Below, piece by piece: positions 31,908-54,702 of a DNA stretch of 54,877 bases. The notes beneath the pieces are model-generated. The model made no database searches, was not told where the DNA came from, and saw only the letters and a program-made list of their open reading frames with translations. Both the position numbers and the translations under genes were made by a program. How positions within the stretch are numbered: position 1 is the stretch's first letter; the number at the start of each line of letters is the position of its first letter. Origin of the DNA: Mycobacterium phage phiGD24-3; the sequence record MW314854.1; one strand, given 5' to 3'.

Positions 31908-31921
31908 GGTCGTATGTCAAG
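31908..31921 (-). promoter_or_regulatory. stoperator site GGTCGTATGTCAAG
   Basis: exact 14-mer. Confidence 0.75.
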
Positions 31922-31930
31922 TTAGAAACG

Positions 31931-32233
31931 TCACTGTGACGCTGGCTCATGCGGAATTACCTGCGCGGTAAACGACACAACGTAAAATTCCGACTCTGTT
32001 TCGGGAAGACCATGCACGGCCCGTACACTCTCATCGCCCCTGGTGTACTCAACGCGGTAAGTCATACCTGAAACCATCGTGCCCAGTTTCGAGAACGCGT
32101 CCGACGCGTTCCTCTCCAAAACCGGATACAAGTCGTCCCACGGTACGTCTTGATAGTACTGCTCTGACACCGTAAAGAAGGTGCAAACTTCCCTCGTGTT
32201 GGGTGTTTCGTTCATTTGTAAACTCCTACTCAT
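31931..32233 (-). CDS. hypothetical protein
   Basis: ORF. Confidence 0.55.
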   Translation of the reverse strand: MSRSLQMNETPNTREVCTFFTVSEQYYQDVPWDDLYPVLERNASDAFSKLGTMVSGMTYRVEYTRGDESVRAVHGLPETESEFYVVSFTAQVIPHEPASQ

Positions 32234-34010
32234 GTGAAGCCTCCATCCAGTTGGCCCCAGCCGGTCCGGCAGACACCGGGAACTCGACTCGCTGGCCTCC
32301 TACGGAGGGTTGAAACTTGGTTTCCATTAGGCGTACCAAGTAATCCCGGCACGCTTCCCAGTTCTCACGCGGAACCGAGAACAACACCGCGTCGTGGATC
32401 TGCGCCTTCACGCGGCGCAGGACGTGCGGCGGCATACGCAACAGCGCATCGCACACGATCTCCCGAGTACCGTTCTGGCCCTTCAGGGCCGGGGCCTGCG
32501 TGAAGATCCGGTCTTTCTCAACCCAGAGCTTCCGGCCCCACTCGTTCATCACGTACCCGCGTGTGGCTTCGTCACGGACCCGGTTCTGCCAGTCGACCAA
32601 CGCAACGAACGTAGAATCCATTCCGTCGCAGAACTTCTTGGCCGTCGTGAACGGCAATCCGGTCACCCGAACCAGACCGCCAGGACGACCACCGTAAGAC
32701 CAACCGTGCCCCAACGGCTTCGCCATCTGCCGGTACTTCTTCGGATCGGACTCCACTACTTCACGGCCCCACGCGGCTATCGCGTTGATCATGTGGCCGT
32801 CCGCTCCCGGCTCGAACCGCTCCGCGTACTTACGGTCCCCCGAGTAGGCAGCGACAATACGAGCGTCGGCGTTCGAGTAATCCAGCTCCAACAACACCTC
32901 GTCGTCGGAGTCCGGTACGAAGTACGACTTCTCCACCGCACCTTCACCTCTGGATGTCCAGACCGTCAACCCCGGTTCGGTGGTACTCCACCGACCCGAC
33001 CGTTGGAGCATCGTTATATCCGGGTGTACGAACCCGTCCGGGTGTGTCGAGTCCAACGCCAGTTGAGCCAACGAACGCTGGCCCTTCAGTTCAGCCAGCG
33101 CTTTTCCGAGATCTTCCGCAGACGTGCCTTTGGTCAGCTCAGTAAGAACCTCGCCACCCAACGACAGGTTTCCGGTAGACGTCTTCGTCCAGTCCTTCCG
33201 GGACTTCGGGGTGATCCCGTGATCGGCCAACGCCGCCATGATGGCTTCTTTACCGGCTGTCGTAGCCCACGGGCTCTTACCCTCGGTCGGCAGACCGTAC
33301 TTGGTCTGGAGTTCGGACAAGATCGCCTCACGGCGGACCCGGAGTTCTTCTACGCGGGCTTTGGCTGCCTCTACGTCAACCCGTAAACCGTTGGAGGATA
33401 TGACGGCAGCTCTTGCCGCTATCTCCTGTTCACGCAGCGCGTAGTCGTCCAGCTTGCCCTTCTTCAGAAGCTCTTGGGCCACCACTCGGGACGCTACAAC
33501 GTCACCGATCAGGTACTCCCGATACCGCTCGTCGTCCACCGGGATAGAACCGAACCCGCCGAACTCTTTGGCTAGCGCCTTCAGGTCGTGGGTCTTCCCC
33601 GGTACCCCGAGCTGGTGTGCCTGTTCGTCCAGGCTGAACCACCGCTTCATCTTGTCCGGGGAATTGGCAAGAGCGTTCTTGCCGTGGCGGTTGACGAACA
33701 TGTACGGGGCCGGATTGACCAACGCCGCGTGGGTCCAGGTGTCGTATACCCGTCGCTGTTGGGCTAGTTCTAGCGGTATGTCGGACTTGATACCGAACAC
33801 CGCTCGCAGGTCGAAGGCGTGGATGTTGTGTCCGATTATCCACCGGGCCTTGAGGATCTGGTGTTTGATCTCGTCCAGGTCGGTGGTCAGAACCACCTCG
33901 CCGTCACCCCACGCGTACCCGATCAGCCGTACGAACTCTTCCGGCTCCATCGAGTACATCAGCTCTGCCGAGTGCGTCTCGATGTCGAAAATCAATGTGC
34001 CCTCGGCCAT
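32226..34010 (-). CDS. DNA polymerase I (3'-5' exo + polymerase domains)
   Basis: N-terminal DEDD exonuclease motifs; family A polymerase motifs. Confidence 0.9.
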   Translation of the reverse strand: MAEGTLIFDIETHSAELMYSMEPEEFVRLIGYAWGDGEVVLTTDLDEIKHQILKARWIIGHNIHAFDLRAVFGIKSDIPLELAQQRRVYDTWTHAALVNPAPYMFVNRHGKNALANSPDKMKRWFSLDEQAHQLGVPGKTHDLKALAKEFGGFGSIPVDDERYREYLIGDVVASRVVAQELLKKGKLDDYALREQEIAARAAVISSNGLRVDVEAAKARVEELRVRREAILSELQTKYGLPTEGKSPWATTAGKEAIMAALADHGITPKSRKDWTKTSTGNLSLGGEVLTELTKGTSAEDLGKALAELKGQRSLAQLALDSTHPDGFVHPDITMLQRSGRWSTTEPGLTVWTSRGEGAVEKSYFVPDSDDEVLLELDYSNADARIVAAYSGDRKYAERFEPGADGHMINAIAAWGREVVESDPKKYRQMAKPLGHGWSYGGRPGGLVRVTGLPFTTAKKFCDGMDSTFVALVDWQNRVRDEATRGYVMNEWGRKLWVEKDRIFTQAPALKGQNGTREIVCDALLRMPPHVLRRVKAQIHDAVLFSVPRENWEACRDYLVRLMETKFQPSVGGQRVEFPVSAGPAGANWMEASHE

Positions 34011-34142
34011 TTCGCTCCTACTGGCGTGACTGGTACCCCATGATCATGTGGTAGATAACGCGCGTTGCGATGTGAGACTTTTCCTTGGAAAGACCTGAGC
34101 CATACAAGTAGGTCTGGAGAATGTGTTCCAGCGTTTCGTCCA

Positions 34143-34355
34143 CTAGTCGTCCAACCCCGAATACTGTTCGACCATGCGAACAGCGGTGTTTTCGAGGGTC
34201 TGGACGAACATCTGGATCTCGTCCGTATACGCACCCATCTGCGCGTAGGCGTGCTGCGTAGCCTTCAGGGCTGCCAACACCACAATCGGAGACAGACTGT
34301 GTGCCAGTATGTCTTTGTAAATCTCTTTCTCGATGTTCATCAAATGCCTTTCCAA
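34143..34355 (-). CDS. hypothetical protein
   Basis: ORF. Confidence 0.5.
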   Translation of the reverse strand: MERHLMNIEKEIYKDILAHSLSPIVVLAALKATQHAYAQMGAYTDEIQMFVQTLENTAVRMVEQYSGLDD

Positions 34356-34609
34356 TAAACGTGTTTGACGATCCGAGAGACCGTGGAATGGTTTACGTCG
34401 AAGATGACCGCCAATTCAGTCACCTTGTAGCCCTTGCGGTACATGTCCCGGATCTGCGAGACCTCGGACTTGGTCAGCTTCTTAGAGTTCGACGGTTGTT
34501 GTCGGATCTGAGATTTCAGCCGTTTGTTGACTTCGGTCAACCGTTCGACCTCGTCGTGTAGGGCGTCGTAGTCGTCTTGAGTCATGTAGATGTACTCGGT
34601 CGTAGTCAT
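34340..34609 (-). CDS. helix-turn-helix DNA-binding protein
   Basis: 'YKVTELAVIFDVNHSTVSRIV' HTH. Confidence 0.6.
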   Translation of the reverse strand: MTTTEYIYMTQDDYDALHDEVERLTEVNKRLKSQIRQQPSNSKKLTKSEVSQIRDMYRKGYKVTELAVIFDVNHSTVSRIVKHVYWKGI

Positions 34610-34833
34610 CGAACGGCCTTCCCCGTGTAGTACTCGACCAACTCCCACCGAAACGACGTGAAACTACCTGTGTCGCCGGTTAGTACCAGTTCGTCGCCGT
34701 CAAACGTCACTCGGCTCTTTGGCACCCGGATCGGTTCGTCTTCGCTGATTAGGTGGACCTCGAAGTCGAACACCTCCGGGGGAGGCGGGGGATCAAACCC
34801 CGCCCCCTCCATCAGTTCCTCGAATGCCGCCAC
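34606..34833 (-). CDS. hypothetical protein
   Basis: ATGA coupling. Confidence 0.5.
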   Translation of the reverse strand: MAAFEELMEGAGFDPPPPPEVFDFEVHLISEDEPIRVPKSRVTFDGDELVLTGDTGSFTSFRWELVEYYTGKAVR

Positions 34834-34836
34834 GGG

Positions 34837-35328
34837 CTATCGAATCCACTCCGCGTCGCACTGGTCCGGAGTTCCCTTGGGAGAAGGACACATAAACGCC
34901 TTCCAGGTCCGACCGTTCTTCGATCCGGTGCGGTACACCATCTCGCCGTGCTTGCACTGGCGGGAGTCACCATCCGGTGCCGACTGTGCCGCTGCCGGTG
35001 CGTTGGACCGAGCCTGTGCGGGTGCAGCCGGTGCCGAGGGGGTAGAACCACCACGGAAGTACGCCGCCGCCTTCTTCGACAGATCCAACAGTTCCTTGAA
35101 CTCCGGGTCTTTCAGAATCGCCTTAGCGTCTTCAACCGAGTTGGCATGGACTACCGTCCACGACGAGTCAAACCCCGCCCCCTCCTTGTAGGTAAGAACG
35201 ATCTTGCCCTCACCGTCCCCTACGGCGGCGGTCTTAACCACGGCGGGGGGTCGCCCTGCGTCGGAGGACACGGGGTTATCGGCTACAGCGGTCTTCGGTG
35301 CGAACGGGTCGTCATCAATATCAGTCAT
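34837..35328 (-). CDS. hypothetical protein with C-terminal Cys cluster
   Basis: RBS GAAAGG. Confidence 0.55.
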   Translation of the reverse strand: MTDIDDDPFAPKTAVADNPVSSDAGRPPAVVKTAAVGDGEGKIVLTYKEGAGFDSSWTVVHANSVEDAKAILKDPEFKELLDLSKKAAAYFRGGSTPSAPAAPAQARSNAPAAAQSAPDGDSRQCKHGEMVYRTGSKNGRTWKAFMCPSPKGTPDQCDAEWIR

Positions 35329-35545
35329 GTTTGCCTTTCGACTTCTTGAACAAAACACCGATCAGGTGATACGGATCGGTTTGAGAAGGCAGCCAATTCA
35401 GTAGGTGGGCTGCCGTTACTAGGACGAGCACGTAGATAGGTACCGGGTTCTTCTCCAGTCCCCTATCGACCGCCTCGGATAGGAGTTCGCCGTCCCGACA
35501 CGAGAGTTCGTGGTAGACAACGGCTGCGGCTATCGCCGCCCACAT
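35321..35545 (-). CDS. small membrane protein (start uncertain)
   Basis: hydrophobic ORF; overlaps the RNR 3' end if the longer start is used. Confidence 0.35.
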   Translation of the reverse strand: MWAAIAAAVVYHELSCRDGELLSEAVDRGLEKNPVPIYVLVLVTAAHLLNWLPSQTDPYHLIGVLFKKSKGKHD

Positions 35546-35564
35546 CTGGGCGCCGGTAAACGAC

Positions 35565-37616
35565 CTAGCGCACGGGACAGCTCCCGTTGCTGCACTCCTC
35601 GTCAACGCCGTCAGCGACGGCCTTAACCACTGACGACTCATATTCCTCCTTCGAGATTCTTTGGTAGGGCGCCTGCGGCAGTGAGGATTCCGGGAAACAC
35701 GTAGACCCCTTGATCAACCCTGCGAACTTCACCAACTGATCCGACACGTCTTTCGCCGTGTACTTGTCTGGGTTGAAGTTGGCGGTGAACGACACCGCGT
35801 TATCCGACCAACACGTCTGGTACATCGCCTGGAACGCCAACAACTCGTTGAGCGACAACTCATCCACCGACTGGACCAATTCTTCGGCCTGTTCCGGCCC
35901 GTAGATCGCCTCTACGTCGGCTACCAGAGAGTCCTTGGTAGGAATGGTTACCACCAACGTGTCCGGGGCGTACAGGTCCTTTTCGACGTGGTACCCCTGC
36001 TCTCGCAGTTCGTCCACCTGTTGCATGTCGTCGCCTCGGGTGTTGAACCGGATGCGCCGGTTGAAGTAGCGGGAGAAGATCGGGTGGATACCTTCTGATA
36101 CTCCGGGCATCTTGGCGATGGTCCCCGTGGGAGCCACCGTCCGTTTCTTAACCGGCACCGGGATACGGAGCTGGTGACAGAACCTCACGGCCTCGTCGTC
36201 CACGTCACCGGCCCACGAACGCAGCTTCGCCTTGAACTCCGGGTCACCCGGTGCGTCCGAGTACTTCCGACCGGTCATCGCCAGATACGAGGCCACCCCT
36301 AGGTGGCCGACACCGATTCGGCGGTTGCGGTCCAACACTTCTCGGGACTTCTCGTCACCTACGGCGGCAAACGTCGCCCGGATCAGGAACCGCGTCATCA
36401 GCTGGTGGGCTTTGTAGACCTCGTAGAGGGACTCCTGACCGTATTCGTCCACGAACGCGGCTAGGTTGACGTGTCCGAGATTGCACGGTTCCCAGGCTTC
36501 TAACGCTATCTCTGCGCAGGGATTGCACGCGATTACACCGTTCGGCTCTCCTCGGTTGTTGGCACTTGCATCCCACATACCTGGTTCGCCGTTGTGTACG
36601 GCACCCACAGACATCAAGTTCATCACCTTGTGAGCGACGATGCTCCGTGAGTCGTACGGGTCCATCGGGTGGTTGTTGTGTAACCAGAACTCTTCATCCA
36701 CCTCCACACTTATGTTGGTCGTCCAGTGTTTCCCCGATTCAGACTTGCAGTAGATGAAGTCGGTAATCTGCTCATCAGCCCAATGCATCATCGCCATGCG
36801 GGCCGACCGGCGAACACCACCCGCCACAACACACTTGGCGATCTCGTGGTCCATCTCCATCGCCGACATACCGTCCAGCCGGTGACCGTGTTTGTCACTG
36901 AGGATCTTCGACACTTCGATCAGCATGTGGGCCAACGGGAGCGGACCCGATGCACGACCACCGAACGTCTTCAGACGAGCGCCCGCATGCCGTATCCGCG
37001 ACACGTCGTAAACCCGGTTGAAGTGGACGGTGTCCTCCCGGTAGTGAGTGTCGATCAGGTCGACCAGCGCAGCCGCCCAACCCTCTCGGGAGTCCTCGAT
37101 AGGGTAGGCACCCTCCCACTCGTAGTCGTACAGCGTAGACAACACGCCTTCAGCCTTGAGCGTTTCGTAATCGGGATGCTCTGGGTCGCAGACGATTTCA
37201 ACCTGTAGGAAGTGTTGGATCAACGGGAAGTGCTGTAGGAACCTGTTGGAGTAGTTAGCCCCTACACCCCCGCCTTCCATCAGGCGCATGAACGTGAACT
37301 CGAAGTGATCCGAAGGTTTTTCGGTCCAACCCGATACCCAGCAGTTGAACAAGTGTTGTGCGTTCTTCACGCCCGACGCCCACAGATGACGACCAGCCGG
37401 GAGGATCTTGAAGTCCGTCATCAGACGGATTAGGTCTTCGCGTTCGTTCTCCAGCTCGTACCGCTTATCGACCAGTGCCAGATTCCCGTCGACTACTCGT
37501 TCCACTGTTTCCGGCCACTGCTCCTTTTCACCGTTGGGTTTTGTGCGGCTGTACGTTCTGCCGTAGACAATCTCTCCGGTTGGACCCCAATTCACCGCAG
37601 TCGTGGGTGTTGCCAC
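35565..37616 (-). CDS. ribonucleotide reductase (class II-like)
   Basis: 'CNPCAEIAL' active-site region; size. Confidence 0.85.
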
Positions 37617-38104
37617 AGATCCATCAACCCTTTCTTCCTTGCCCGCCTAAGGGCAAGGGATATCTCGTTCTTCATCTCGATAGGCATATCCAGCAGCAAC
37701 ATGTTGCAAGTTCCACAACTTGGGACGACGTTGTCCTGCGTGTGGGCGAGCGCGTTGTCTATTCGGTCTAACCCACCCGATTCGGACTTCCCGCAATGGC
37801 TACAAGGACGCTTCATAATCTCCTTGGCCGTAGGCCAAGAAACAGGGGTGCCAGGTCGGCCGCGTGCCAGGTCTTTACCCAGGTAATGTCGGTAGCGTTC
37901 GTACGTTCGGTTAGATTCCCGGTACTTAGCGACCGCTGATCGGGTCTGCCCCCTATGGCGTGCGCGACATCTCCATCGTCCTCCGTCCCGCTGGCGGTTG
38001 TCCTTGTGCCATAACCAATGTTCCGTAGTGGGTTCTACATTCCCGCAGTACGTGCACATACTAGGCTTGGGTACCGGGTCATCCGCATAACTCACTTTGC
38101 CCAT
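37592..38104 (-). CDS. HNH endonuclease
   Basis: 'GGLDRIDN...CGTCN' plus N-terminal CxxC. Confidence 0.65.
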
Positions 38105-38224
38105 TCGCCGCCGCAAAACATCTCGCGGTCCTGTTGACTCCAGTTCTCTATCCGCATCCGCTTCTCGTGCGGGAAGAGTTCGGGAAACACTTCCGCCCTG
38201 TACATCTCGGAATGTGGCATCCCG

Positions 38225-39116: not shown

Positions 39117-39130
39117 GGTCGTATGTCAAG
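39117..39130 (-). promoter_or_regulatory. stoperator site GGTCGTATGTCAAG
   Basis: exact 14-mer. Confidence 0.75.
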
Positions 39131-39184
39131 TACGGCTCCTGTCAAAGACAGGGGCCTCCAGCTCATGAACTCCGTTCATAGCGC

Positions 39185-40873: not shown

Positions 40874-41160
40874 CGACCCTCCTGGTCGTATGTCAAGGGC
40901 GGTACGCCCGAAGGTGCGGATTGCTCGTAAGCCCGCACTACTTGTTTGATCACGTCTGGTTTGAACCCGACAATGGGTTGATGGGTCCACGACAACACCA
41001 ACGGGACCTGTTTGACGCCATGTTCTTTCAGAACATCCATCGCCCAGTCATTATCCGTTGTCGATATGTCGTAGTACTCGTACACCGCACCTTCGCGGTC
41101 CAACAGCTTCTTAACCTGTTCGCAGCCAGGGCAACCCGGCTTCCCGAATACTTGAATCAC
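40870..41160 (-). CDS. NrdH-like glutaredoxin
   Basis: CPGC active site. Confidence 0.75.
   Translation of the reverse strand: MIQVFGKPGCPGCEQVKKLLDREGAVYEYYDISTTDNDWAMDVLKEHGVKQVPLVLSWTHQPIVGFKPDVIKQVVRAYEQSAPSGVPPLTYDQEGR
40884..40897 (-). promoter_or_regulatory. stoperator site GGTCGTATGTCAAG
   Basis: exact 14-mer. Confidence 0.75.
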
Positions 41161-42694: not shown

Positions 42695-43020
42695 AACAGC
42701 GATCTAACGCATTTCCCGCAGCTGACCGGGCCGTTGCAACACGAGTGATCGTGGTCTACGGACAACCTGCGCGAGGCCCCGGTGGCTCTCTGGCAGATAG
42801 CACACTTGCGACCTTGGGCCTCGTACACCGCCCAATATTGCTCCGGTGACAGTGAATACGTCTTCATCAACCGGGATTCCCAAGCGGTAGAACGGGTCTT
42901 GGCCCGCCTAGCCCGGTGGTGCGAAGCACAACGCGGCCCCGGATTGGGTGCCGGTCGTTTGGTCGTGATGCCTTCGGCCCGACAGTCGACGCAGACGCGG
43001 GGTTTAGCCATCGCACTCAC
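42577..43020 (-). CDS. endonuclease VII (Holliday-junction resolvase)
   Basis: 'CAICQR...VDHDHSCC...C.KCVRSLLCSTCN' motif. Confidence 0.8.
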   Translation of the reverse strand: MSAMAKPRVCVDCRAEGITTKRPAPNPGPRCASHHRARRAKTRSTAWESRLMKTYSLSPEQYWAVYEAQGRKCAICQRATGASRRLSVDHDHSCCNGPVSCGKCVRSLLCSTCNKLLGHIRDDVQTAERIKDYLLNPPGRRVLDRWP

Positions 43021-43228
43021 ACAACAGATTCCACACTTTGTCAGGGCTTCCCAGTTCTTTGTCAGGGCTTCCCAGTTCTTTGTCAGGGCTTCCCAGTTCT
43101 AGGATGACCCGACACCCTTTGTTACGGCAGTGCATTTCTGGTCTGTGCCCGCACCGTTCACATTTCGTGCACGTACAACCCTTAGCGGCGCATCCGTGGG
43201 GTTTGGACGGTCGGTCAGTCAATAGCAC
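43004..43228 (-). CDS. small Cys-rich protein with three tandem ELGSPDK repeats
   Basis: ORF spans the 3x21-bp repeat. Confidence 0.35.
   Translation of the reverse strand: MLLTDRPSKPHGCAAKGCTCTKCERCGHRPEMHCRNKGCRVILELGSPDKELGSPDKELGSPDKVWNLLCECDG
43036..43098. repeat. three perfect tandem copies of 21-bp CTTTGTCAGGGCTTCCCAGTT
   Basis: read directly. Confidence 0.95.
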
Positions 43229-44653: not shown

Positions 44654-44735
44654 CTAGAACATCCTTTCCGCCCACCAACGGGACAGCGCACGAACACCCC
44701 TGCGGGCGATACGGTCCACTTCCACCGCCTCGGCA

Positions 44736-44749
44736 GGCCGTATGTCAAG
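44736..44749 (-). promoter_or_regulatory. stoperator site GGCCGTATGTCAAG
   Basis: exact 14-mer. Confidence 0.75.
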
Positions 44750-44888
44750 TGTCAGATCAGCAAAACGGACGCCAAACACATCGATAGACAGGTTCATGAC
44801 GGATACCACCCGTAAACCCCTCCGAAAGCACCCATGACCACACCGATGTGGTACACGACTTCGGAGTACACAATGAACGGAAGGAGTC

Positions 44889-45134
44889 TCATACGCCTAC
44901 CCGCTCGATAAACCGGTCCACATTCAGCTGAGACACGTTGCCCGCCAACGGGTTCTTGTACGCCCAACCGGTCATCTTGGTCTCGATGATCAACGGACGC
45001 TTCGGGTCCGGGCTTGCCGGGTCGACCCTCTTGTGGGTCCACGTCGTAGGCACCCGGTCGATAAGACCGAAACCGATACGCTGCCTTACCAAGCTGGGCT
45101 TAGCGAGTGCCATCGGGGTAATGGTTGCAGTCAT
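44889..45134 (-). CDS. hypothetical protein
   Basis: RBS GAGAGGAA downstream of a stoperator. Confidence 0.55.
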   Translation of the reverse strand: MTATITPMALAKPSLVRQRIGFGLIDRVPTTWTHKRVDPASPDPKRPLIIETKMTGWAYKNPLAGNVSQLNVDRFIERVGV

Positions 45135-45157: not shown

Positions 45158-45171
45158 GGCCGTATGTCAAG
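45158..45171 (-). promoter_or_regulatory. stoperator site GGCCGTATGTCAAG
   Basis: exact 14-mer. Confidence 0.75.
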
Positions 45172-45229
45172 TACGGCACGAGCGAAAGCTCGCGCCTAGT
45201 GTCGCCAGCTCGGCTGGCTAACACCGCAC

Positions 45230-46489: not shown

Positions 46490-46828
46490 CTAACCCCAGA
46501 AGGCGGAAACCCTTTTGTACGTAATCGACCACCGATCTGTAGGCCGATCCCCACCCTTTTTTATAAAGACGTAGCAGTCTTCACCGTCTATCGTGGGGTG
46601 GACGTCTGTAGCGATCACCCGATCTAGTAGCCGCCAGGTGTCGTCCAACCGAGTCATCAACGTCACGAATCTATTGAAGTCAGACATTTCGGCCTCCGTT
46701 GGGGGCCAGCCGTCTTCAGTCAACTCTTCATACACCCGTGTGACTTTAGCCATCTGCCACGGCTCTAACGGGTACTCTTTACCGTCCCGAGTCACTGACC
46801 GGGGACCGATCTTTATTGGGCCACCCAT
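46490..46828 (-). CDS. hypothetical protein
   Basis: ATG after AGGAGG overlapping a stoperator. Confidence 0.6.
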   Translation of the reverse strand: MGGPIKIGPRSVTRDGKEYPLEPWQMAKVTRVYEELTEDGWPPTEAEMSDFNRFVTLMTRLDDTWRLLDRVIATDVHPTIDGEDCYVFIKKGGDRPTDRWSITYKRVSAFWG

Positions 46829-46838: not shown

Positions 46839-46852
46839 GGTCGTATGTCAAG
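46839..46852 (-). promoter_or_regulatory. stoperator site GGTCGTATGTCAAG
   Basis: exact 14-mer. Confidence 0.75.
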
Positions 46853-46854
46853 CA

Positions 46855-47634
46855 CTAAGCCTGGCTGTATTGGCATGAATACGAAACATCGCAGAACCGG
46901 CACTTCGACGGCTCCGGGTCTGGCGGGAAGTTTCCCGCGTTGATGTTGTCCTGTAGTTCTACGAACTTGTCCCGCACCGTCTCTCGGGTCCAGTCGGTGA
47001 GATCGTATGGCTTGGTGGGCTTTCCAGTCTTACCCATCCAGTAGTCCCCTGTCGGCGCATACGCGCCGTGGGTCACTTCCATCGCCACCTTGTAGGCTCC
47101 GAGTTGGAAGTCATCACCAGGCTTGTTACCCGTCTTGTTGTCCCGGACGTAGATCTCATCACCGCAGAGGTTTGACATGATCAAGTCGATGAACCCACGG
47201 ATCTCGATACCGTCTAGGTCGATGTCGAACCCGAGCTCAATACCGGGCGTGCCGTCCGGCGCGATCCACACGACCTCGTCCTGGTGCTTCCCGTACCAGT
47301 CCAACATCCGGCCACACTGCTGTAGTCCGAGGTCATATCGGCGGTTGATATCGGCTTCGCCGTTATACGGTCCCGACCAGAACCACCACTCCAAGTTCGG
47401 TGTTACGTCACAGTATGTATTGACGTGGTTGTCGTACGACTCGGTGTAGACCTGTTGCATCTCTTCCAGGGTCATCGTCCGACCGGATCGCTCCCACGCC
47501 TCCCCCGCTTCGTGTACCGCAGACCCCTGCGGTAGCCACGCTGCCGGTCGCTGCCACGCCTTCTCAACCCGAGATAGGTACCACGCCATAGGACACCGCT
47601 CGTACTGTTTGTACTGGGAGACACTGAGTTTCAC
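46855..47634 (-). CDS. Cas4-family / RecB-like exonuclease
   Basis: PD-(D/E)xK-like core and C-terminal Cys cluster 'CRFCDVSYSC'. Confidence 0.75.
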   Translation of the reverse strand: MKLSVSQYKQYERCPMAWYLSRVEKAWQRPAAWLPQGSAVHEAGEAWERSGRTMTLEEMQQVYTESYDNHVNTYCDVTPNLEWWFWSGPYNGEADINRRYDLGLQQCGRMLDWYGKHQDEVVWIAPDGTPGIELGFDIDLDGIEIRGFIDLIMSNLCGDEIYVRDNKTGNKPGDDFQLGAYKVAMEVTHGAYAPTGDYWMGKTGKPTKPYDLTDWTRETVRDKFVELQDNINAGNFPPDPEPSKCRFCDVSYSCQYSQA

Positions 47635-47897
47635 TACGGCACCGCCAGTCTGTAGATTGTGTAGATCGCATGGTTGGAGGCCATGTTCTCATCGAGTGTT
47701 ACGTAGGGACCCACCTGGATGGTATGTCGGTTCTCCGCCAAGAACTCCAACACCGGTTGGTATATCTCGCTGGTCTCCGGTAGGGCAATACTACGGTTGA
47801 CCAACAAAACACGATTGCCAGACATCATCATCGTCCTGGCCACAAGCCAAGGTACGTAAGCGATTAGGAGTGTTGTGTGCGCAGCGGCTTGTAGCAC
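47634..47897 (-). CDS. hypothetical protein
   Basis: GTG-start ORF. Confidence 0.45.
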   Translation of the reverse strand: MLQAAAHTTLLIAYVPWLVARTMMMSGNRVLLVNRSIALPETSEIYQPVLEFLAENRHTIQVGPYVTLDENMASNHAIYTIYRLAVP

Positions 47898-47912: not shown

Positions 47913-48416
47913 CTAGGGTTCGCGTGGCGGAAATTTCCATATCTGTTCTCCGTATTCAGTTATGTGAGTGTGTTCGTTCACGCGAATCATCAGACCCTTA
48001 TCACGCGGCTCTCTCGGCCTGTAAGCAAACCCTCCTGGCTTGCATACCCCTGGGTCAGACGGGATTTCCGGGTCGTACTCAACAACCAGGTTCTCGTCCC
48101 TAAGTTTCTTGTAGAACGACCGTAACTTGCTGCGTCGACGTTCGGTAAAACGGTCGCTGCCTTGCATCATGTGCTCGGCGTGGTCTCGCAGCAGCGCTAG
48201 TGGCTGTGCCCGGTTGAATTTCTCCGGCACCGCGAACGGAAGAGCCTCGGCCACACGCTGCCGTATGGCGGGCGTTCCGTCGTACTTCCTCCATAGGTAC
48301 GAAACTGCCTGGCGGGTGACCCCGAACATCTCCGCAATTTGGCTGTGGTTGTACCCTTCATTTTTCAGTTGTCGAATGATCCCTATGGTCAAACCGGATG
48401 CATATGTTTCGTCCAT
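47913..48416 (-). CDS. immunity repressor (L5 gp71-like, HTH)
   Basis: HTH 'SQIAEMFGVTRQAVSYLW'; 'LRDHAEHM' and 'IRVNEHTHIT' match the recalled L5 gp71 pattern. Confidence 0.85.
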   Translation of the reverse strand: MDETYASGLTIGIIRQLKNEGYNHSQIAEMFGVTRQAVSYLWRKYDGTPAIRQRVAEALPFAVPEKFNRAQPLALLRDHAEHMMQGSDRFTERRRSKLRSFYKKLRDENLVVEYDPEIPSDPGVCKPGGFAYRPREPRDKGLMIRVNEHTHITEYGEQIWKFPPREP

Positions 48417-48479
48417 CTATTCCTCCAGCTCGGTTGACAGTCAATACAGTCAAGGCTAGCTGTCAAGTGGTTGCATAGC

Positions 48480-48508: not shown

Positions 48509-48689
48509 GTATCAGGAGTCCCCGTCCTGTGACACAGATTACAACAAGTGTTCACAAAGATTTGACGCGTATGTCACTCGTTACCAAATCGTTATCTAAC
48601 ACACCTCGGTTCACCAAAGACGCCCTTGACCAGTACGTATGTCCGGGTTCTTATAGATTCATCAACTAGATAGAGTAGTTGTGCCCTAT

Positions 48690-48890
48690 CTAGAAAGTGA
48701 GAAGTGCTGTAAGATGCCCGATTCGCTCCTGGACCTGTGTCAACAACGTTTGCAAGAAGTACCGATTGTTGACGGCGATCGGTGATTGGTCCCCGTCCAA
48801 GTCTTCCAGATCGTCGTAAATCCGCGTCTCCAATTTGATAGCTTCGGGGAGCATCAAGTCTTCGTATTCCACGGGGGTCGTAATAGACAT
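48690..48890 (-). CDS. hypothetical protein
   Basis: ORF. Confidence 0.5.
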   Translation of the reverse strand: MSITTPVEYEDLMLPEAIKLETRIYDDLEDLDGDQSPIAVNNRYFLQTLLTQVQERIGHLTALLTF

Positions 48891-48916
48891 ATCAAACCTC
48901 TTTGTTTGATTAGTGA

Positions 48917-49162
48917 CTAATGGTTGTTGCCTAAAGGCACGATGATACTGTTGTAATAATCCATCTGGGCTTCATACGCATCTTGCGCTACTGAGTACTC
49001 ACAAGCCTTAGCAAAATTCCGATGGTGGGCGTCCAGATGGTCAAACCGATCTCCTGGTCCGTCGCCCTCGTACTCATACTCGGGTTCTACGGGCGGCACA
49101 GGAGCGGGGATGAACGTCGGCAGTTGTTCGTCTCCGTCGATGTACGTACCCTCTTGCCTCAT
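48917..49162 (-). CDS. hypothetical protein
   Basis: ORF with conserved upstream ACGTGATTCGGAGG. Confidence 0.5.
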   Translation of the reverse strand: MRQEGTYIDGDEQLPTFIPAPVPPVEPEYEYEGDGPGDRFDHLDAHHRNFAKACEYSVAQDAYEAQMDYYNSIIVPLGNNH

Positions 49163-49341
49163 AACCCCTCCGAATCACGTCGGATGTACTTGCGGAACAG
49201 TCCCGATGACTCGATACATCGAGAGCCCTTGCCGTCCAAGTCCGTGTACCGATAGAAGCGGCTGCCGTCGTATCCGGCTATGACAATGGCGCGCTTACCG
49301 TCCTTGCTATCCCAGACGGTCCCAACAAGATCCTTGGTCAT
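49159..49341 (-). CDS. hypothetical protein
   Basis: ORF with conserved upstream ACGTGATTCGGAGG. Confidence 0.5.
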   Translation of the reverse strand: MTKDLVGTVWDSKDGKRAIVIAGYDGSRFYRYTDLDGKGSRCIESSGLFRKYIRRDSEGL

Positions 49342-49446
49342 TCCCCGTCCTCCGAATCACGTTTGGCCCCAGAATGCTTACACCCCGGAGGCCACTCATT
49401 GATGCCGTGGCATTTACCAACACAGACACATCGATAGACAACAACA

Positions 49447-49776
49447 TCAGTCATCTCTCCACCACTTGTTCTTTCTGTTCCAATGATGATGGTCATCGTC
49501 GTCTTCGTCCTCTTCGGTCTGAACCGGTACCGGGGCGTATGTCGTTGGGGCCGTGGGCGTCACCACCTGGTGAGGATCTGCATCGCCCTTATCGCAGTTG
49601 GGTAGCTCACCCCGAGACACGTGGTACGCGTTGTCGTTGTCTATACCGCCGTGTCTTTCAACGTGTGCGGTACCCCGGTGTTCACACGTCAGGGGTATAG
49701 CGTGCGCCACTATAGGTGAGGTGATCGGGGCCAGGGCCAAGCCCAAACCTATTGCGGTCGGACGGATTAGGTTCAT
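49447..49776 (-). CDS. secreted protein (signal peptide, acidic/His-rich C-terminus)
   Basis: 'MNLIRPTAIGLGLALAPITSPIVAHA'. Confidence 0.6.
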   Translation of the reverse strand: MNLIRPTAIGLGLALAPITSPIVAHAIPLTCEHRGTAHVERHGGIDNDNAYHVSRGELPNCDKGDADPHQVVTPTAPTTYAPVPVQTEEDEDDDDHHHWNRKNKWWRDD

Positions 49777-50258
49777 ACGTAGTATTCCGAGCTGGCGAGG
49801 CGGATTCGTTGTCTAACGTAGATCCGAGACATGTTCTCCCCTGCTCGGTTCTGCGCCGCTCGCACAGCAGCCCGGAGACCACTAGCCGCAGACTCATATC
49901 GTTGCCAACCGTAGTGTGCAAGGGTGTCGAACTTGTCGTCGCCGCCGTACGGCCCCCACTCTTGGATATCCGTTGTGGGGCAACCTTCGATGTGTATCTG
50001 GTCGCTGTTCCTGTGCTCGTAAGCGCAGAATGTCCAGTCCCCCGCCGTAACTGTCAATCCGTATTCTCGGCAGTTGTCAAAGGTACCGAACTCGATGTCC
50101 ACGATTGACGAGTCGTCTTCCAGACACTCGAACACTCGGTAGGCGATAGATACCTGTGTTGATGCTAGCGCGAACACCACAGGACTCTTGTAATAGCCCT
50201 TACCCCAGTCGGTATATTGGTCCTGTACAAGCTGTTCCACAGCCTCGTAGAACTTCAT
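49773..50258 (-). CDS. hypothetical protein
   Basis: RBS GGAGG; start chosen to avoid overlap. Confidence 0.5.
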   Translation of the reverse strand: MKFYEAVEQLVQDQYTDWGKGYYKSPVVFALASTQVSIAYRVFECLEDDSSIVDIEFGTFDNCREYGLTVTAGDWTFCAYEHRNSDQIHIEGCPTTDIQEWGPYGGDDKFDTLAHYGWQRYESAASGLRAAVRAAQNRAGENMSRIYVRQRIRLASSEYYV

Positions 50259-50325
50259 CAAGCCTCCAAATACGCTGTGATAGTGAGGATTACCGGGAAG
50301 ATCAGGCACAGGTACACGATGAACG

Positions 50326-50556
50326 TCACAGCCGTAGCTCCAAGACTGCATCCCCAACAACGCAACCGTCCTTGGTAAGACCCCAAAACTTGTAATAGCC
50401 GGGAACTTCAAAGTCAGCCGATACGATTAACTGGTTGTCCGACGCATAATTGATAACAATGCTTTCGGCTTGACCCCAATCACTCGGGTGTCTCACCGTA
50501 TGCCGGTGATTGTCATTGTCCGACACGTCACGAATCTGTAGTATTAGCTCACTCAT
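50326..50556 (-). CDS. hypothetical protein
   Basis: RBS GAAAGG. Confidence 0.5.
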   Translation of the reverse strand: MSELILQIRDVSDNDNHRHTVRHPSDWGQAESIVINYASDNQLIVSADFEVPGYYKFWGLTKDGCVVGDAVLELRL

Positions 50557-50780
50557 TCGAATATCCTTTCCAACGTCGCGTATCCTGCGAATCCCATTGT
50601 CGGACAGACGAACCACCACGTGGTTTTGTTCTCGTCGTGGTGTTTGATGTCCATCCGATACGAGTTGTCAGCCGCGTAAGCGGCTGCCATACCTACACCC
50701 TGGTCCCAGTTGGACGGGTATTCGGTGGTGTCGTGGCCGGTGATGACGTTCGATACCGTCAGCCGGTAGAACGTGGTCAC
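50553..50780 (-). CDS. hypothetical protein
   Basis: ATGA coupling. Confidence 0.5.
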   Translation of the reverse strand: MTTFYRLTVSNVITGHDTTEYPSNWDQGVGMAAAYAADNSYRMDIKHHDENKTTWWFVCPTMGFAGYATLERIFE

Positions 50781-51052
50781 AACCGAGCCTCGTAGTACAC
50801 GTCCTCAGGACGTACACCACAACGATCACACGATCCACCATTCCGTTGCCCGTATGCGTATTCGTCCTTGACAAGATCACGGTGGTGTCCACAGAAGGCC
50901 ACTACATGGTTTTCGCAGGGGTATACGAAGTGCACCCGCATAACCCACTCCGCCTCCGACGCACAAGGACCCCCTTCCTCGGCCCATTCGCAGACACGTG
51001 CGGGCATGTCCCCCACGATGCTCTCAACATCGACTACCGACATCGTTGTCAT
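50777..51052 (-). CDS. Cys/His-rich (zinc-binding?) protein
   Basis: RBS TAAGGAG. Confidence 0.55.
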   Translation of the reverse strand: MTTMSVVDVESIVGDMPARVCEWAEEGGPCASEAEWVMRVHFVYPCENHVVAFCGHHRDLVKDEYAYGQRNGGSCDRCGVRPEDVYYEARL

Positions 51053-51085
51053 GTCGCTCCTTATGTTGTTGTCATACCTTTGATT

Positions 51086-51172
51086 TGGTGCCCCCGGCGC
51101 GAATCGAACGCGCCACACACAGCGACTCCGGGAGTTCATACGCCTCCGGGGGAGCGTGTAACCGTTGGGGGC
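51086..51172 (-). ncRNA. tRNA-like element: perfect T-arm (GCGCG-TTCGATT-CGCGC), GC acceptor helix, encoded CCA; non-canonical 5' half
   Basis: minus strand reads ...GGCGCGTTCGATTCGCGCCGGGGGCACCA; 5' GCCCCCA pairs with 3' CGGGGGC. Confidence 0.4.
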
Positions 51173-51295
51173 GGTCTGGTTTCGACATGAGCGATAGCTC
51201 ATGCCTTTTATCGTGGGTGGTTAGAGTTGTGGCTCAAACCAAATCCAAAGCCAGCCGTCATCACCGTCGTCGTCCCGCTCCCTCATAGTCCTAGT

Positions 51296-51430
51296 TCACG
51301 CTCCTGTCAGCTGGTCTACGTAGCAGCCGGAAGGGCAACGCCCGCAGCACATGTTGTAAGCCCAGTCAGCATCTACGGCGCGGAGTCGGGCTTTCTGTTC
51401 TTCGGATAGGGGTTCAATGCGGTAACTCAT
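51296..51430 (-). CDS. small Cys-rich protein (44 aa)
   Basis: ATGA coupling. Confidence 0.35.
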   Translation of the reverse strand: MSYRIEPLSEEQKARLRAVDADWAYNMCCGRCPSGCYVDQLTGA

Positions 51431-51639
51431 CGCCACCACCTCGCAGGCTTCGCCCACATGATCGATAAGTACGGATGTCCCGGCTGGTTATCGTGGGGCA
51501 GTCGGATTGCGACTCCGATGACTTGTCGCGGGTACCGGTTCAGGACAACAAGCCGGGGGCGTTCGGCTGCATGGCATTTCACAGCCCGGAACTGGATTGG
51601 CCAACCAAACGGCGGCACGAATCGTCTTTGGTCGCTCAT
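51427..51639 (-). CDS. hypothetical protein
   Basis: ORF. Confidence 0.45.
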   Translation of the reverse strand: MSDQRRFVPPFGWPIQFRAVKCHAAERPRLVVLNRYPRQVIGVAIRLPHDNQPGHPYLSIMWAKPARWWR

Positions 51640-51887
51640 CTTCCACCTGCCGTGAATGCTGCTATAGCCTCCCGAACCTCAATCACGTGCACCTGACCAT
51701 CGTTTGTCCGTGGCACGATGATTTCTCCAAACCGGTGGAGTGCGTTAGCCCCTCCTTGTATCAGGCTCCTGTAGCCAGAACGTGAATAGTGCTGACCACA
51801 ATGCGAATACGTGTCGTAGACGTCCTTCACCCATAAATCGAGGTCTCTTCGGTTTTCAACCTTGGGTACGTAACGAATCACGGTCAA
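51636..51887 (-). CDS. hypothetical protein
   Basis: TTG start after AGAAAGG. Confidence 0.45.
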   Translation of the reverse strand: MTVIRYVPKVENRRDLDLWVKDVYDTYSHCGQHYSRSGYRSLIQGGANALHRFGEIIVPRTNDGQVHVIEVREAIAAFTAGGR

Positions 51888-52010
51888 ACCTTTCTCAATC
51901 CCGTGTAACCGGGTGTCTGCGTTCGTATCTCGTCAAACCTCTAGTGGCGACAGCCACGGCTACAACACCGAACACACCGGCAACCACGAGGTGTATCAAC
52001 GTGCTCATGT

Positions 52011-52250
52011 CTAATTCGTATGCCTAATACGGCCCACGACAACATCTCCCGGCTGTAACGGGCTGTACCACGGTAGTAGACCAGGCGATCCCGGAGGGGC
52101 GAAGGAATTGTCTGAGTAGACGTGGTACTTGCCCGACCGTTTTAAAACCGTGTATCCGCACCAGAACTCAGGTCTGACCACTTGTCTGTCCAACCACATC
52201 GCTTGTCCAGCGGTCTCTATTGCCTCATCCAGGGTGGTATGCATCGTCAT
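52011..52250 (-). CDS. hypothetical protein
   Basis: ORF. Confidence 0.45.
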   Translation of the reverse strand: MTMHTTLDEAIETAGQAMWLDRQVVRPEFWCGYTVLKRSGKYHVYSDNSFAPPGSPGLLPWYSPLQPGDVVVGRIRHTN

Positions 52251-52289
52251 CTCTTTCGTTTATTGGTACGTCAGGCCTGTAGACATTCG

Positions 52290-52541
52290 TCATCGCCACA
52301 TGTCCTTGACCAGTTCGTCTGTCCAAACGACAACGGTTTCGCTGCCGTCGTGGGGTTGGACAAGGCATTGGTTGTGGATGGACCGACGCATCAGCACAGT
52401 GCCGACACGACCACTACGCATGAAAACGGTGTCGTTGTTACGAATCATGTTCTGTGCCTCTATGTCCATGGTTATCGGACGACCACGGTCAGGCCGCGTA
52501 GGTTGGGCTCTGGGGCCTTCGTGGAATGCCCGCGCTTGCAC
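52290..52541 (-). CDS. hypothetical protein
   Basis: ORF. Confidence 0.45.
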   Translation of the reverse strand: MQARAFHEGPRAQPTRPDRGRPITMDIEAQNMIRNNDTVFMRSGRVGTVLMRRSIHNQCLVQPHDGSETVVVWTDELVKDMWR

Positions 52542-52589
52542 GTGTACTGGTTAAGCCAGACCAACGCCTCCGCTGCAAGACTGCCTCTT

Positions 52590-52631
52590 GCCTCGCAGGT
52601 CGAGCACCAGCTCGACGAGCGGGGCTTTTTT
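52590..52631 (+). terminator. rightward-oriented intrinsic terminator (nested hairpins GCCTCGC...GTCGAGC-acca-GCTCGAC...GCGGGGC + TTTTTT)
   Basis: read directly; orientation opposes the gene direction in this arm. Confidence 0.5.
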
Positions 52632-52952
52632 ATGCCCAGAACGAGACCGCCTACTGTTCGGCCACGTGACCGCCGCGCTGCGATACCGTCGCCGCAAATC
52701 GATCAGGGACTCGCTCGACGATTCGGAGCTGACACCGACCGTCGACCTACGGATTAAAAGTCCGTAGCTTCAGCCTGCGACGCAAAATGTCAGAGTATGC
52801 GCTGGTGAGCGGCGTAGCATACGAGCCGCGGGCATTTCACCTGAACCGGGCCCCAATATATAGGAGTCTCTCGGGGTGCCCACAGCAGAGGAATGGCGGT
52901 CATTGGCCGCTACCGGCATCGTCGAACTCTTGGAGACTGAGGGGGCGGCCAC

Positions 52953-53117
52953 TCAGCCGGGTATGGAGGCCAAGCTGGCGGACGCGTCGTGGAGGTACTC
53001 CGGGTCGTTGGCGATCTTCCCCATCGCGTACACCTCGGCCAAGTCTTCCGACCGCATGTCGTCTAGCGACCAACCCAAGTCTTTGATGGCCTGGTCGACC
53101 TCTGCCATTGCGCTCAT
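52953..53117 (-). CDS. hypothetical small protein (54 aa)
   Basis: RBS AGGAGA downstream of a stoperator. Confidence 0.5.
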   Translation of the reverse strand: MSAMAEVDQAIKDLGWSLDDMRSEDLAEVYAMGKIANDPEYLHDASASLASIPG

Positions 53118-53138
53118 ATCTTCTCCTAAGTCGGTTCG

Positions 53139-53152
53139 GGTCGTATGTCAAG
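53139..53152 (-). promoter_or_regulatory. stoperator site GGTCGTATGTCAAG
   Basis: exact 14-mer. Confidence 0.75.
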
Positions 53153-53198
53153 TACTTGGGTAAATAAAAAGGTCTATTAGTTGGTATGTAGTAGTGGA

Positions 53199-53369
53199 TT
53201 AGTAGGGTAGGTCGGTCAAATCGTCTGAGTAGTGTTCGGCATAGTTGACCTCGTGTCCGACAAGTGCGGCTGCGTGCTCGGCGGCTTCGCATTCACTGTC
53301 TGCGATGACGTAGATGTCTTCATCTCCGGTGTCTACGACATACACGGCGCTCTGCCCGCAGGTACCCAT
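53199..53369 (-). CDS. hypothetical small acidic protein
   Basis: ATGA coupling. Confidence 0.45.
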   Translation of the reverse strand: MGTCGQSAVYVVDTGDEDIYVIADSECEAAEHAAALVGHEVNYAEHYSDDLTDLPY

Positions 53370-53746
53370 CAGAACACCACGCCGCCCGTGAAAGCCTTGC
53401 AAATTCCCAGCTCGTCGTGGTCACGCAGAAGCAGCTCAAGTGTCTCTGCCATCTCCCTAGGGACATAGCGCAGCTCTGATCCGATGCGGACCTCGATCAA
53501 GTCTGCACGCCGTTCTGCCGCAAAGCGGCGCTCCTCTTCCGCTTGGTGGCAACTCACCTGAAAGTCACCCTCTACGAATTGGTGGCGTGGGATGGCTACT
53601 TGATTGCCGTACTGGTTGCTGATCGCCACGGCGTTATGACGATTGACCCGTAATACCCGGAAGGTCTCACCGCTGTGTGTATTACGCACGGTGTCACCGG
53701 CAGCGACGACTTGGTCAACGCCTTTACCCGCCCAGTAATCATTCAT
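53369..53746 (-). CDS. hypothetical protein (125 aa)
   Basis: first sizeable ORF downstream of the right-end promoters. Confidence 0.6.
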   Translation of the reverse strand: MNDYWAGKGVDQVVAAGDTVRNTHSGETFRVLRVNRHNAVAISNQYGNQVAIPRHQFVEGDFQVSCHQAEEERRFAAERRADLIEVRIGSELRYVPREMAETLELLLRDHDELGICKAFTGGVVF

Positions 53747-54174
53747 CTATCTAGTCCTTATCGGTAGTAGCTCAAATCTTCTAGTGCCACGTTTGGAGTC
53801 GAACCAAACCCCTACGGTCATATCGAGAGGGCGAACCTGCCGTGGCCGACCACCAGGCACACGCTGTATCTCAAGCGCAAGCCAAATGGCCTTAAAGTAT
53901 GTTCACGTCCGTATGTTTTCCTCGGCCCGTTTCCGTGGGTTAGACCGGTCACTGAAGGCTGACTAAACGCCACTCCCTCGCAGTCCGGTAGGTCTTGGCG
54001 ATGCCCGTCATCGCTCGCTACCGGAGATATCTTCTACGTACGCTATGTGTTATGACTTGGGGGGTATCACCAGGCTCGCTGGTTGACCATGCTCCGTGTC
54101 ACTTGTTATTCAGTTGTAGGCGCTTGAGGCATAGCCTCTGCGCTTTGCGTCGAGAACTATGTTCTCTAGCGATC

Positions 54175-54204
54175 AAACTATCAGATTGTGGGCCGTATGT
54201 CAAG
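54175..54204 (-). promoter_or_regulatory. candidate promoter: -35 TTGACA inside operator GGCCGTATGTCAAG (54191-54204), 17 bp, -10 TAGTTT
   Basis: read on the minus strand. Confidence 0.45.
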
Positions 54205-54290
54205 CCGTGTTGCTTGGCTCTATGCGCTCGCTCACCCGCTGGCGTATGGGTTTACTTGACGTTGTATGCCCGTTCTGAAGTTGTATCTGT

Positions 54291-54320
54291 ACTCTAACTC
54301 ATTGCCGGTCGTATGTCAAG
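54291..54320 (-). promoter_or_regulatory. candidate early promoter (Pleft-like): -35 TTGACA inside operator GGTCGTATGTCAAG (54307-54320), 17 bp, -10 TAGAGT
   Basis: read on the minus strand. Confidence 0.5.
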
Positions 54321-54415
54321 TCGCAATTTGAGCGGTTGTACGGCCCTGTGCGGTATCGGGGTTACCGACATACCGCCACACCGTTGACGGGCCGTCTGTG
54401 CTCGCACAGGGACAC

Positions 54416-54443
54416 AAAAAAGGCCCTCCCCGAAGGGAGGGCC
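54416..54443 (-). terminator. intrinsic terminator for leftward transcription (GGCCCTCCC-cgaa-GGGAGGGCC + TTTTTT on minus strand)
   Basis: perfect 9-bp stem + U-tract. Confidence 0.75.
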
Positions 54444-54457
54444 GTTGGCGGTGGGGG

Positions 54458-54667
54458 TTATCGGTAGTTCTCCGATGTCACGTAGTACACCGCGCCTGTG
54501 TCGGGGTCGGTCCAGTTGCACGGTTTCCCGTCCGTATTCCCGTCCTCGTATTGGCATACGGGCAATTGGTCTGCGTGTGCTGTTGCTTCTACCGCAGTGG
54601 GCAGTCCTACCCAGAACGCACCAACGGTGAGTGTAGCGAGGGCCAGTTGCTTCCATGTGTTTGACAT
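54458..54667 (-). CDS. small secreted protein (69 aa; signal peptide, 2 Cys), probably leaderless
   Basis: 'MSNTWKQLALATLTVGAFWVGLPTAVEATAHA'; ATG at the predicted +1 of the promoter at 54674-54702. Confidence 0.55.
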   Translation of the reverse strand: MSNTWKQLALATLTVGAFWVGLPTAVEATAHADQLPVCQYEDGNTDGKPCNWTDPDTGAVYYVTSENYR

Positions 54668-54673
54668 ACGACC
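54660..54673 (+). promoter_or_regulatory. inverted operator-like site tTTGACATACGACC (13/14) overlapping the start codon of the 69-aa gene
   Basis: reverse orientation relative to 54689-54702, forming a dyad. Confidence 0.6.
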
Positions 54674-54702
54674 ACTCTACTACGCACGGGCCGTATGTCA
54701 AG
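54674..54702 (-). promoter_or_regulatory. candidate promoter: -35 TTGACA inside operator GGCCGTATGTCAAG (54689-54702), 16 bp, -10 TAGAGT; +1 = A of ATG at 54667
   Basis: read on the minus strand. Confidence 0.5.

Follow-up and report, generated by a model that had tools for sequence, protein, structure and literature searches.

Repressor binding as a monomer, combined with an orientation-dependent block to transcription elongation, is known for the mycobacteriophages L5, Bxb1 and TipsytheTRex, the last of which has an immunity repressor 98% identical to L5 gp71 (PMC9283540). A system of this kind, with repeated repressor sites termed stoperators, has also been reported from Cluster MabJ, a group of temperate phages of Mycobacterium abscessus that is organised like the Cluster A mycobacteriophages. 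[quoted passage not shown] Here, we describe this system in Mycobacterium phage phiGD24-3 (sequence record MW314854.1), a cos-ordered genome of 54,877 bp—hereafter the window—that nucleotide similarity assigns to Cluster MabJ. We put at about 0.9 the probability that the window carries a complete Cluster A-style repressor–stoperator system, in which, judging from sequence and by analogy with the described phages, a 167-residue homologue of L5 gp71 would act at 14-bp sites to shut off the early promoter and to block elongation in the lysogen. The literature on Cluster MabJ already gives this motif with its distribution and interpretation; the repeat and its statistics, orientation and placement, the homology of the repressor, the promoter-like geometry and the conservation in relatives were established here for this genome.

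The repeated 14-base motif is real. The sequence GGYCGTATGTCAAG has 11 exact matches in the window, far above the 0.00 expected from 100 dinucleotide-preserving shuffles, and an unbiased k-mer count across the whole window returned fragments of the same sequence as the top repeated 10-mers genome-wide. Ten copies lie on the + strand (starting at 31908, 39117, 40884, 44736, 45158, 46839, 53139, 54191, 54307 and 54689) and one on the − strand (19741). The original prediction, made from the sequence alone with a motif (GGtCGTATGTcAAg) whose reverse complement is the published consensus cTTgACATACGaCC, had counted eleven copies plus a twelfth in the left arm; the exact total is 10 + 1 = 11, and the twelfth copy exists as a variant with one mismatch. 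That variant (GGTCGTATGTCAAA, − strand, 54660–54673), which is reversed relative to the neighbouring sites, is one of two extra sites gained by allowing up to two mismatches. The other, on the + strand at 37826–37839 (GGCCGTAGGCCAAG), is probably a decayed site; both mismatches fall in the TTGACA half, it abuts AAGGAG-N3-ATG and the same form is present in prophiT49-3. The motif is asymmetric rather than palindromic and its conservation is limited to 14 bp, the flanks of the sites being unrelated. A general repeat search of the window and of prophiT49-3 recovered no second over-represented dispersed short motif.

Structural genes occupy the + strand on the left of the genome and early and replication genes the − strand on the right, with transcription running rightward in the left arm and leftward in the right arm. 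Read on the coding strand of the neighbouring genes, each of the 11 exact sites is 5′-CTTGACATACGRCC; all are thus co-oriented with transcription, which bears out the uniform orientation originally proposed; the sole inverted copy is the one-mismatch promoter site at 54660–54673. Seven or eight sites fall at gene junctions and three in the non-coding right end. The claim that the sites occupy very short intergenic gaps stands for two of them, 31908–31921 (33-bp gap) and 46839–46852 (26-bp gap, past the Cas4-type exonuclease gene). The site at 40884–40897 lies inside a gene, within the last codons of an NrdH-like gene, and the gaps elsewhere are longer: 39117–39130 starts 54 nt past the stop of a metallophosphoesterase gene and 44736–44749 lies in a 235-bp stretch between 44653 and 44889, while the gaps at 45158–45171 and 53139–53152 measure about 80–95 bp. 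Of this last pair, the former site is 58 nt past the stop of a DnaB-like helicase gene and 23 nt before an ATG at 45134, a placement that agrees with the prophiT46-3 annotation; the latter is 21 nt upstream of an ATG at 53117 and 46 nt past the stop of the upstream open reading frame (ORF), and is syntenic in four annotated relatives. Two further sites (54191 and 54307) lie within a non-coding right end of roughly 0.55 kb and a third (54689) within a predicted promoter. The only left-arm stoperator, at 19741–19754 on the − strand, starts 3 nt past the stop of the major tail protein gene and precedes the tail assembly chaperone gene; it has counterparts at the same syntenic place in L5 (14880) and MyraDee (13177).

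Rather than overlapping ribosome-binding sites, as had been suggested for 40884 and 46839, the sites abut them: 31908, 40884 and 46839 share the coding-strand layout CTTGACATACGACC-AGGAGG-N4-ATG/GTG, with the start codons at 31897 (ATG), 40873 (GTG, of the next gene) and 46828 (ATG), respectively. This bears on annotation. In relatives, a GTG start (46855) is annotated directly beside the stoperator, at 46853–46855, and a start at the ATG at 46828, which a perfect AGGAGG precedes by 4 nt, is more plausible; similarly, the TTG at 39127–39129 that relatives annotate as the start of the next gene belongs to the CTTGACA of the stoperator at 39117. Across the site at 44736, the small ORFs annotated in relatives are of inconsistent length (126, 156 and 198 bp), and the 51-codon ORF spanning it in the window (44654–44809) is doubtful. 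Small hairpins without T tracts were seen at 39131–39160 (CCTGTC-TTT-GACAGG) and 45172–45200 (GCGAGC-TTTC-GCTCG), 6–8 nt upstream on the coding strand of the stoperators at 39117 and 45158, respectively, and each is followed by the same GTAC spacer.

The protein expected to bind these sites is encoded on the − strand at 47913–48416. Its 167-residue product, with an N-terminal helix-turn-helix (HTH) and an L5-type ‘stoperator’ DNA-binding domain, matched the crystallised immunity repressor of TipsytheTRex (PDB 7R6R/7TZ1; E = 3.2e-34) over residues 9–163, spanning both DNA-binding domains, as well as PHROG 357 ‘transcriptional repressor’ (E = 1.8e-61). In prophiGD43A-4 and prophiT46-3, the proteins annotated as immunity repressors are 99.4% identical to this product. 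The gene named as the repressor in the original prediction is thus clearly homologous to the stoperator repressor of L5 and TipsytheTRex. Its position also agrees: like L5 gene 71, it lies two genes upstream, in the direction of transcription, of a Cas4/RecB-type exonuclease gene, and the order exonuclease (46855–47634), small gene (47634–47897), repressor is the 69-70-71 order of L5. On sequence and analogy, the 14-mer is almost certainly the binding site of the phage’s immunity repressor. Just upstream of the repressor ATG, at 48431–48467 on the − strand, lies a cluster of degenerate half-sites (CTTGACAGCTAGCC and CTTGACTG) with a palindrome (TTGACTGTCAA); its L5 counterpart is a one-mismatch site upstream of gene 71 (44936), and the cluster may provide weak autoregulation.

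At the right end, the sites coincide with promoter-like elements. A consensus scan found TTGACA-16-TAGAGT on the − strand at 54701–54674, matching 10 of 12 positions, with its −35 inside the site at 54689–54702; there the coding (−) strand reads CTTGACATACGGCC and TTGACA (54701→54696) is the predicted −35 of a Pleft-like promoter. The operator is conserved in 14 MabJ genomes, and the predicted −10 (TAGAGT, 54674–54679, − strand) is TAGAGT or TAGGGT in 14 of 14. Directly after this −10 begins the inverted site at 54660–54673 (GGTCGT-ATG-TCAAA), which corresponds to ‘site #12’ of PMC9934374 and, from its position over the transcription start, is probably a second operator, so that the two sites would together bracket the Pleft-like promoter. 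The inverted site contains the ATG at 54667 that opens the first ORF past Pleft (54458–54667, − strand), which encodes 69 residues with a hydrophobic N-terminus (PHROG 12613, E = 5e-10, unknown function); the same ATG is the annotated start of prophiT49-3 gp57 and prophiBWHA-1 gp55. Because it lies only 6 nt past the −10, the mRNA of this ORF is probably leaderless.

Second and third promoter-like elements follow, in each of which the site again supplies the −35: TTGACA-17-TAGAGT at 54307–54320, with the −10 at 54296→54291, and TTGACA-17-TAGTTT at 54191–54204. Among the 11 exact sites, only those at 54689, 54307 and 54191 are followed by TANNNT 16–17 bp past TTGACA; none of the remaining eight has it at 16–19 bp, where the background rate is 0.9–1.7% per position. 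This three-fold TTGACA/TANNNT pattern is kept in 14 of 14 MabJ genomes examined despite diverged spacers, and the three elements look like tandem repressor-controlled promoters. The early region appears to be served by three operator-controlled promoters in tandem and by an inverted operator, within which a probably leaderless first gene has its start codon. Tandem operator-promoters were considered as a MabJ novelty and rejected as such: MyraDee has four and L5, weakly, a second, and the tandem arrangement is therefore a shared Cluster A trait.

Other features of the right end deserve mention. Just past the 69-residue ORF, a strong intrinsic-terminator-like hairpin on the − strand at 54413–54443 (GGCCCTCCC-TTCG-GGGAGGGCC, then TTTTTT) would insulate this tiny promoter-proximal gene from the remaining early region. 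Scanned against Rfam with a permissive threshold, the right end gave only a weak small-RNA hit over this hairpin, which at 22 bits falls below the gathering score of 61 and which we regarded as chance. The 422-nt non-coding leader at 53747–54168 showed no unusual folding stability (z = −0.24). Within it, downstream of the promoters, is a tRNA-like piece at about 53775–53860 (− strand), whose T-arm (GGTTCGACTCC) fits the consensus and whose acceptor stem is partial, called by neither ARAGORN nor Rfam, in the position occupied in L5 and D29 by the abundant non-coding Pleft RNA.

To place the motif among related systems, those of L5, MyraDee and JSwag (Gordonia, A15) were derived directly from their genomes. 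The top L5 repeat is GGTGGMTGTCAAG, in agreement with the L5 consensus given in the original prediction; MyraDee has CGTTCGATGTCAAG, JSwag GGGGATTGTCAAG and MabJ GGYCGTATGTCAAG. All four share a TGTCAAG half. The MabJ motif differs from each of the other three and so represents a different specificity, as the original prediction had proposed, and the L5 motif does not occur as a repeat in the window, which places it outside L5-type (Subcluster A2) specificity. In the TipsytheTRex work, RNA polymerase meets the HTH domain first, and the variable central positions 8–9 are contacted by K75 and D78 of the second domain (PMC9283540). Because the polymerase encounters the HTH first and the coding strand of the sites presents CTTGACA first, we infer, by analogy, that the HTH would read CTTGACA and the stoperator domain the variable half. 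The alignment of the window repressor is consistent with this assignment: R45, Q46 and Y55 are retained, and the contacts of the stoperator domain have changed. The segment aligned to L5 residues 72–83 differs among the L5, MyraDee and JSwag repressors, as do their variable half-sites.

For binding, monomer stoichiometry, the assignment of domains to half-sites and the block to elongation, our model draws on the work on L5, Bxb1 and TipsytheTRex. As a monomer, the 47913–48416 repressor would bind the asymmetric 14-bp sequence 5′-CTTGACATACGRCC on the coding strand, with its HTH expected to read the CTTGACA half common to Cluster A and its second, ‘stoperator’ domain TACGRCC, the half particular to the cluster. 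Within a lysogen, occupation by the repressor of the −35 at 54689, and probably also of the −35s at 54307 and 54191 together with the inverted site at 54660 over the transcription start, would turn off the early leftward promoter or promoters. At the seven co-oriented right-arm sites and the one left-arm site, the repressor would block elongating RNA polymerase and so silence read-through. The original prediction had read the repeat as a Cluster A stoperator network, and every part of that reading that sequence can address—repressor homology, gene position, asymmetry, orientation and overlap with the −35—agrees with it.

Cluster MabJ contains two alleles of this repressor: one of 167 residues, in the window, prophiT46-3 and prophiGD43A-4, and one of 155 residues, in prophiT49-3 and prophiBWHA-1. 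Overall identity between the two is 52%. Nucleotides 48034–48416 of the window, which cover the first 128 codons and encode the DNA-binding part, give no nucleotide alignment with the allele of prophiT49-3 and prophiBWHA-1; the flanks of this divergent part are 86% (downstream) and 95.5% (upstream) identical between the window and prophiT49-3. Divergence is uneven along the protein. Over the HTH part the alleles are 44% identical, against 59% between the window and MyraDee, whereas over the stoperator-domain region they are 59% identical, against 33–38% to L5, MyraDee and JSwag. The aligned contact segments KFNRA and KLRSF are common to both alleles, and so is the variable half-site; the stoperators themselves are identical in genomes of both allele types. 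Shared stoperator-domain residues fit a shared variable half-site, and this predicts at least partial cross-immunity. We therefore raise, tentatively and at somewhat less than even odds, the possibility that both alleles serve the identical set of 14-bp stoperators; if both bind, at least partial homoimmunity would follow among these phages, against the heteroimmunity expected in PMC9934374, and divergence of the repressor would then be driven by something besides DNA specificity. Were this so, contacts with RNA polymerase, anti-repressors and host defences would be candidate drivers.

Several considerations weigh against reading the window as a complete repressor–stoperator system. The two alleles are only 44–45% identical over their N-terminal 128 residues and yet occur with identical sites, although repressor and stoperator usually co-diverge in Cluster A (PMC6550527). 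Of the two residues essential in the stoperator domain of TipsytheTRex, K81 is replaced by Q, and R108, conservatively, by K. With 14 bp in the site in place of 13 bp, the contact geometry must differ somewhat. Finally, the MabJ system is itself described as one that ‘has not been explored’ (PMC9934374).

Allele divergence of this kind speaks for the idea that another conserved DNA-binding protein of the phage, for example one of the annotated right-arm helix-turn-helix proteins, occupies the 14-bp sites, with the gp71-like repressor recognising some other sequence: the DNA-binding part (48034–48416) is unalignable between flanks that are 86–95% identical, while the sites remain the same. Against it, neither the window nor prophiT49-3 contains a second over-represented motif; moreover, the repeat carries the TGTCAAG half common to Cluster A, and it is specifically the stoperator-domain region that is conserved between the alleles (59% against 33–38%), with KFNRA and KLRSF in common. 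We consider this explanation very improbable. The same low standing belongs to the proposal that the 14-mers are primarily promoters, forming an early or middle promoter set scattered through the right arm rather than roadblocks. Every site does have TTGACA on the coding strand, and those at 54689, 54307 and 54191 have TANNNT 16–17 bp downstream, conserved in 14 genomes, but the other eight exact sites have none at 16–19 bp, and for these internal sites, which have no −10, we rejected a promoter role. At 31908, 40884 and 46839, the start codon comes 10 nt past the site, such that a transcript would begin inside the gene; the seven bases beyond TTGACA are unneeded for a −35 element and are equally conserved; and L5 sites of the same kind have been found by experiment to bind repressor (PMC5712189, PMC9283540).

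Less probable still is a selfish or structural repeat with no regulatory role, such as the end of a miniature mobile element, a packaging signal or a hotspot of recombination where modules meet. Location at gene boundaries, which is where mosaic joints are also found, and the small hairpins that precede some sites (39117 and 45158) would suit such an element, but with only 14 bp conserved between unrelated flanks, the copies show neither target duplications nor paired inverted ends, and strict co-orientation with transcription and overlap with the −35 of the early promoter would be unexpected. The repressor–stoperator system remains, in our view, the best account of the repeat.

The arrangement recurs across the cluster. 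Our scan reproduced the published sites at syntenic positions in prophiT49-3, prophiBWHA-1, prophiT46-3 and prophiGD43A-4; prophiT46-3 and prophiGD43A-4 have 11 exact sites each, ten of them syntenic with those of the window, and syntenic sites also occur in 9 IMG/VR prophages. In IMG/VR, multiple copies of the 14-mer were confined to isolate prophages, mostly of about 53–57 kb (two contigs are 64 and 97 kb), and metagenome contigs gave single hits, consistent with chance. A search of GTDB, with one genome per bacterial species, returned 0 hits for the Pleft double-operator pattern or for a 20-mer of stoperator plus ribosome-binding site, and the system is thus not demonstrated beyond M. abscessus isolates.

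The assignment to Cluster MabJ rests on 88–99.6% identity to prophiT46-3, GD43A-4, BWHA-1 and T49-3 over 41–99% of the queried segments. The closest records are prophiT46-3 and prophiGD43A-4: the left arm is 99.6% identical to prophiT46-3, the right arm from 30.6 to 46 kb is 97.5% identical to prophiGD43A-4 and the final 11 kb is 98.8% identical to prophiT46-3 across 77% of its length. No database record is identical to the window, whose genome is therefore a mosaic. Between the arms, at 29167–30585, lies the gene for a serine integrase of 472 residues that matched PHROG 95 integrase (E = 9e-119) and PHROG 125 DNA invertase; MabJ prophages are listed as serine-integrase phages (PMC9934374). 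Similarity to the prophage records switches ends at about 30616, the presumed attP, and beside it, at 30659–30698 on the − strand, a terminator-like hairpin with a 17-bp stem and a T tract marks the distal end of the leftward right-arm operon.

Elsewhere in the genome, two copies of tRNA-Phe(GAA) and one of tRNA-Ser(TGA) were called within 7428–8134; a tRNA-like sequence with a CCA anticodon-loop sequence at 7889–7937 was left uncalled by ARAGORN, and in relatives this region carries an annotated tRNA-Trp(CCA). Two minor tail protein genes contain collagen-like Gly-X-Y coding repeats (2533–3098 and 4567–4891). At 43036–43100, a 21-bp unit (CTTTGTCAGGGCTTCCCAGTTCT) is present in three perfect tandem copies, which would form an in-frame repeat of seven residues in a small − strand ORF (43004–43228).

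Under the reading preferred here, the genome would carry a complete Cluster A-style immunity circuit with MabJ specificity. Conceptually nothing in this is new. Our small additions to the published account (PMC9934374) are the tandem operator-promoters, the inverted site holding the ATG of a probably leaderless gene and the sharing of sites by alleles that are 52% identical, and the occurrence of strongly diverged repressor alleles with one operator sequence is a mildly interesting lead. The sites can aid annotation, as several start codons annotated in relatives fall within stoperators, and knowledge of them helps to predict the immunity of individual M. abscessus lysogens to individual MabJ phages, a practical matter in phage therapy of M. 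abscessus.

Set against the described systems, the window resembles L5 and TipsytheTRex in having a homologous repressor (42% identity, both DNA-binding domains) and, like L5, it has asymmetric sites ending in TGTCAAG that are co-oriented with transcription, one of them past the major tail gene, with some abutting AGGAGG ribosome-binding sites. As is predicted for the window, the L5 operator at 51697–51709 supplies the TTGACA (−35) of Pleft, for which the mapped start is 51,672 (PMC5712189), and is oriented like all the right-arm stoperators. The differences from L5 are equally clear: a 14-bp site (GGYCGTATGTCAAG) in place of the 13-bp GGTGGMTGTCAAG; 11–12 sites, one of them in the left arm, in place of about 24; a serine integrase; M. 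abscessus as host; and changes at residues aligned to the base contacts of the stoperator domain (K75E, D78N, K79R, K81Q and R108K), with R45, Q46 and Y55 retained in the alignment. MyraDee and JSwag share the logic of the system and have repressors 49–52% identical to that of the window, about as distant as the second MabJ allele; MyraDee also has its four tandem operator-promoter sites at the right end, but the motifs of the two phages are CGTTCGATGTCAAG and GGGGATTGTCAAG, respectively. [quoted passage not shown] From these the window departs in being a mosaic that matches no record exactly, and from the published description in that the predicted −35 is supplied, as in L5, by the co-oriented site at 54689, 29 bp upstream, whereas the inverted site named there as the true operator covers the start point.

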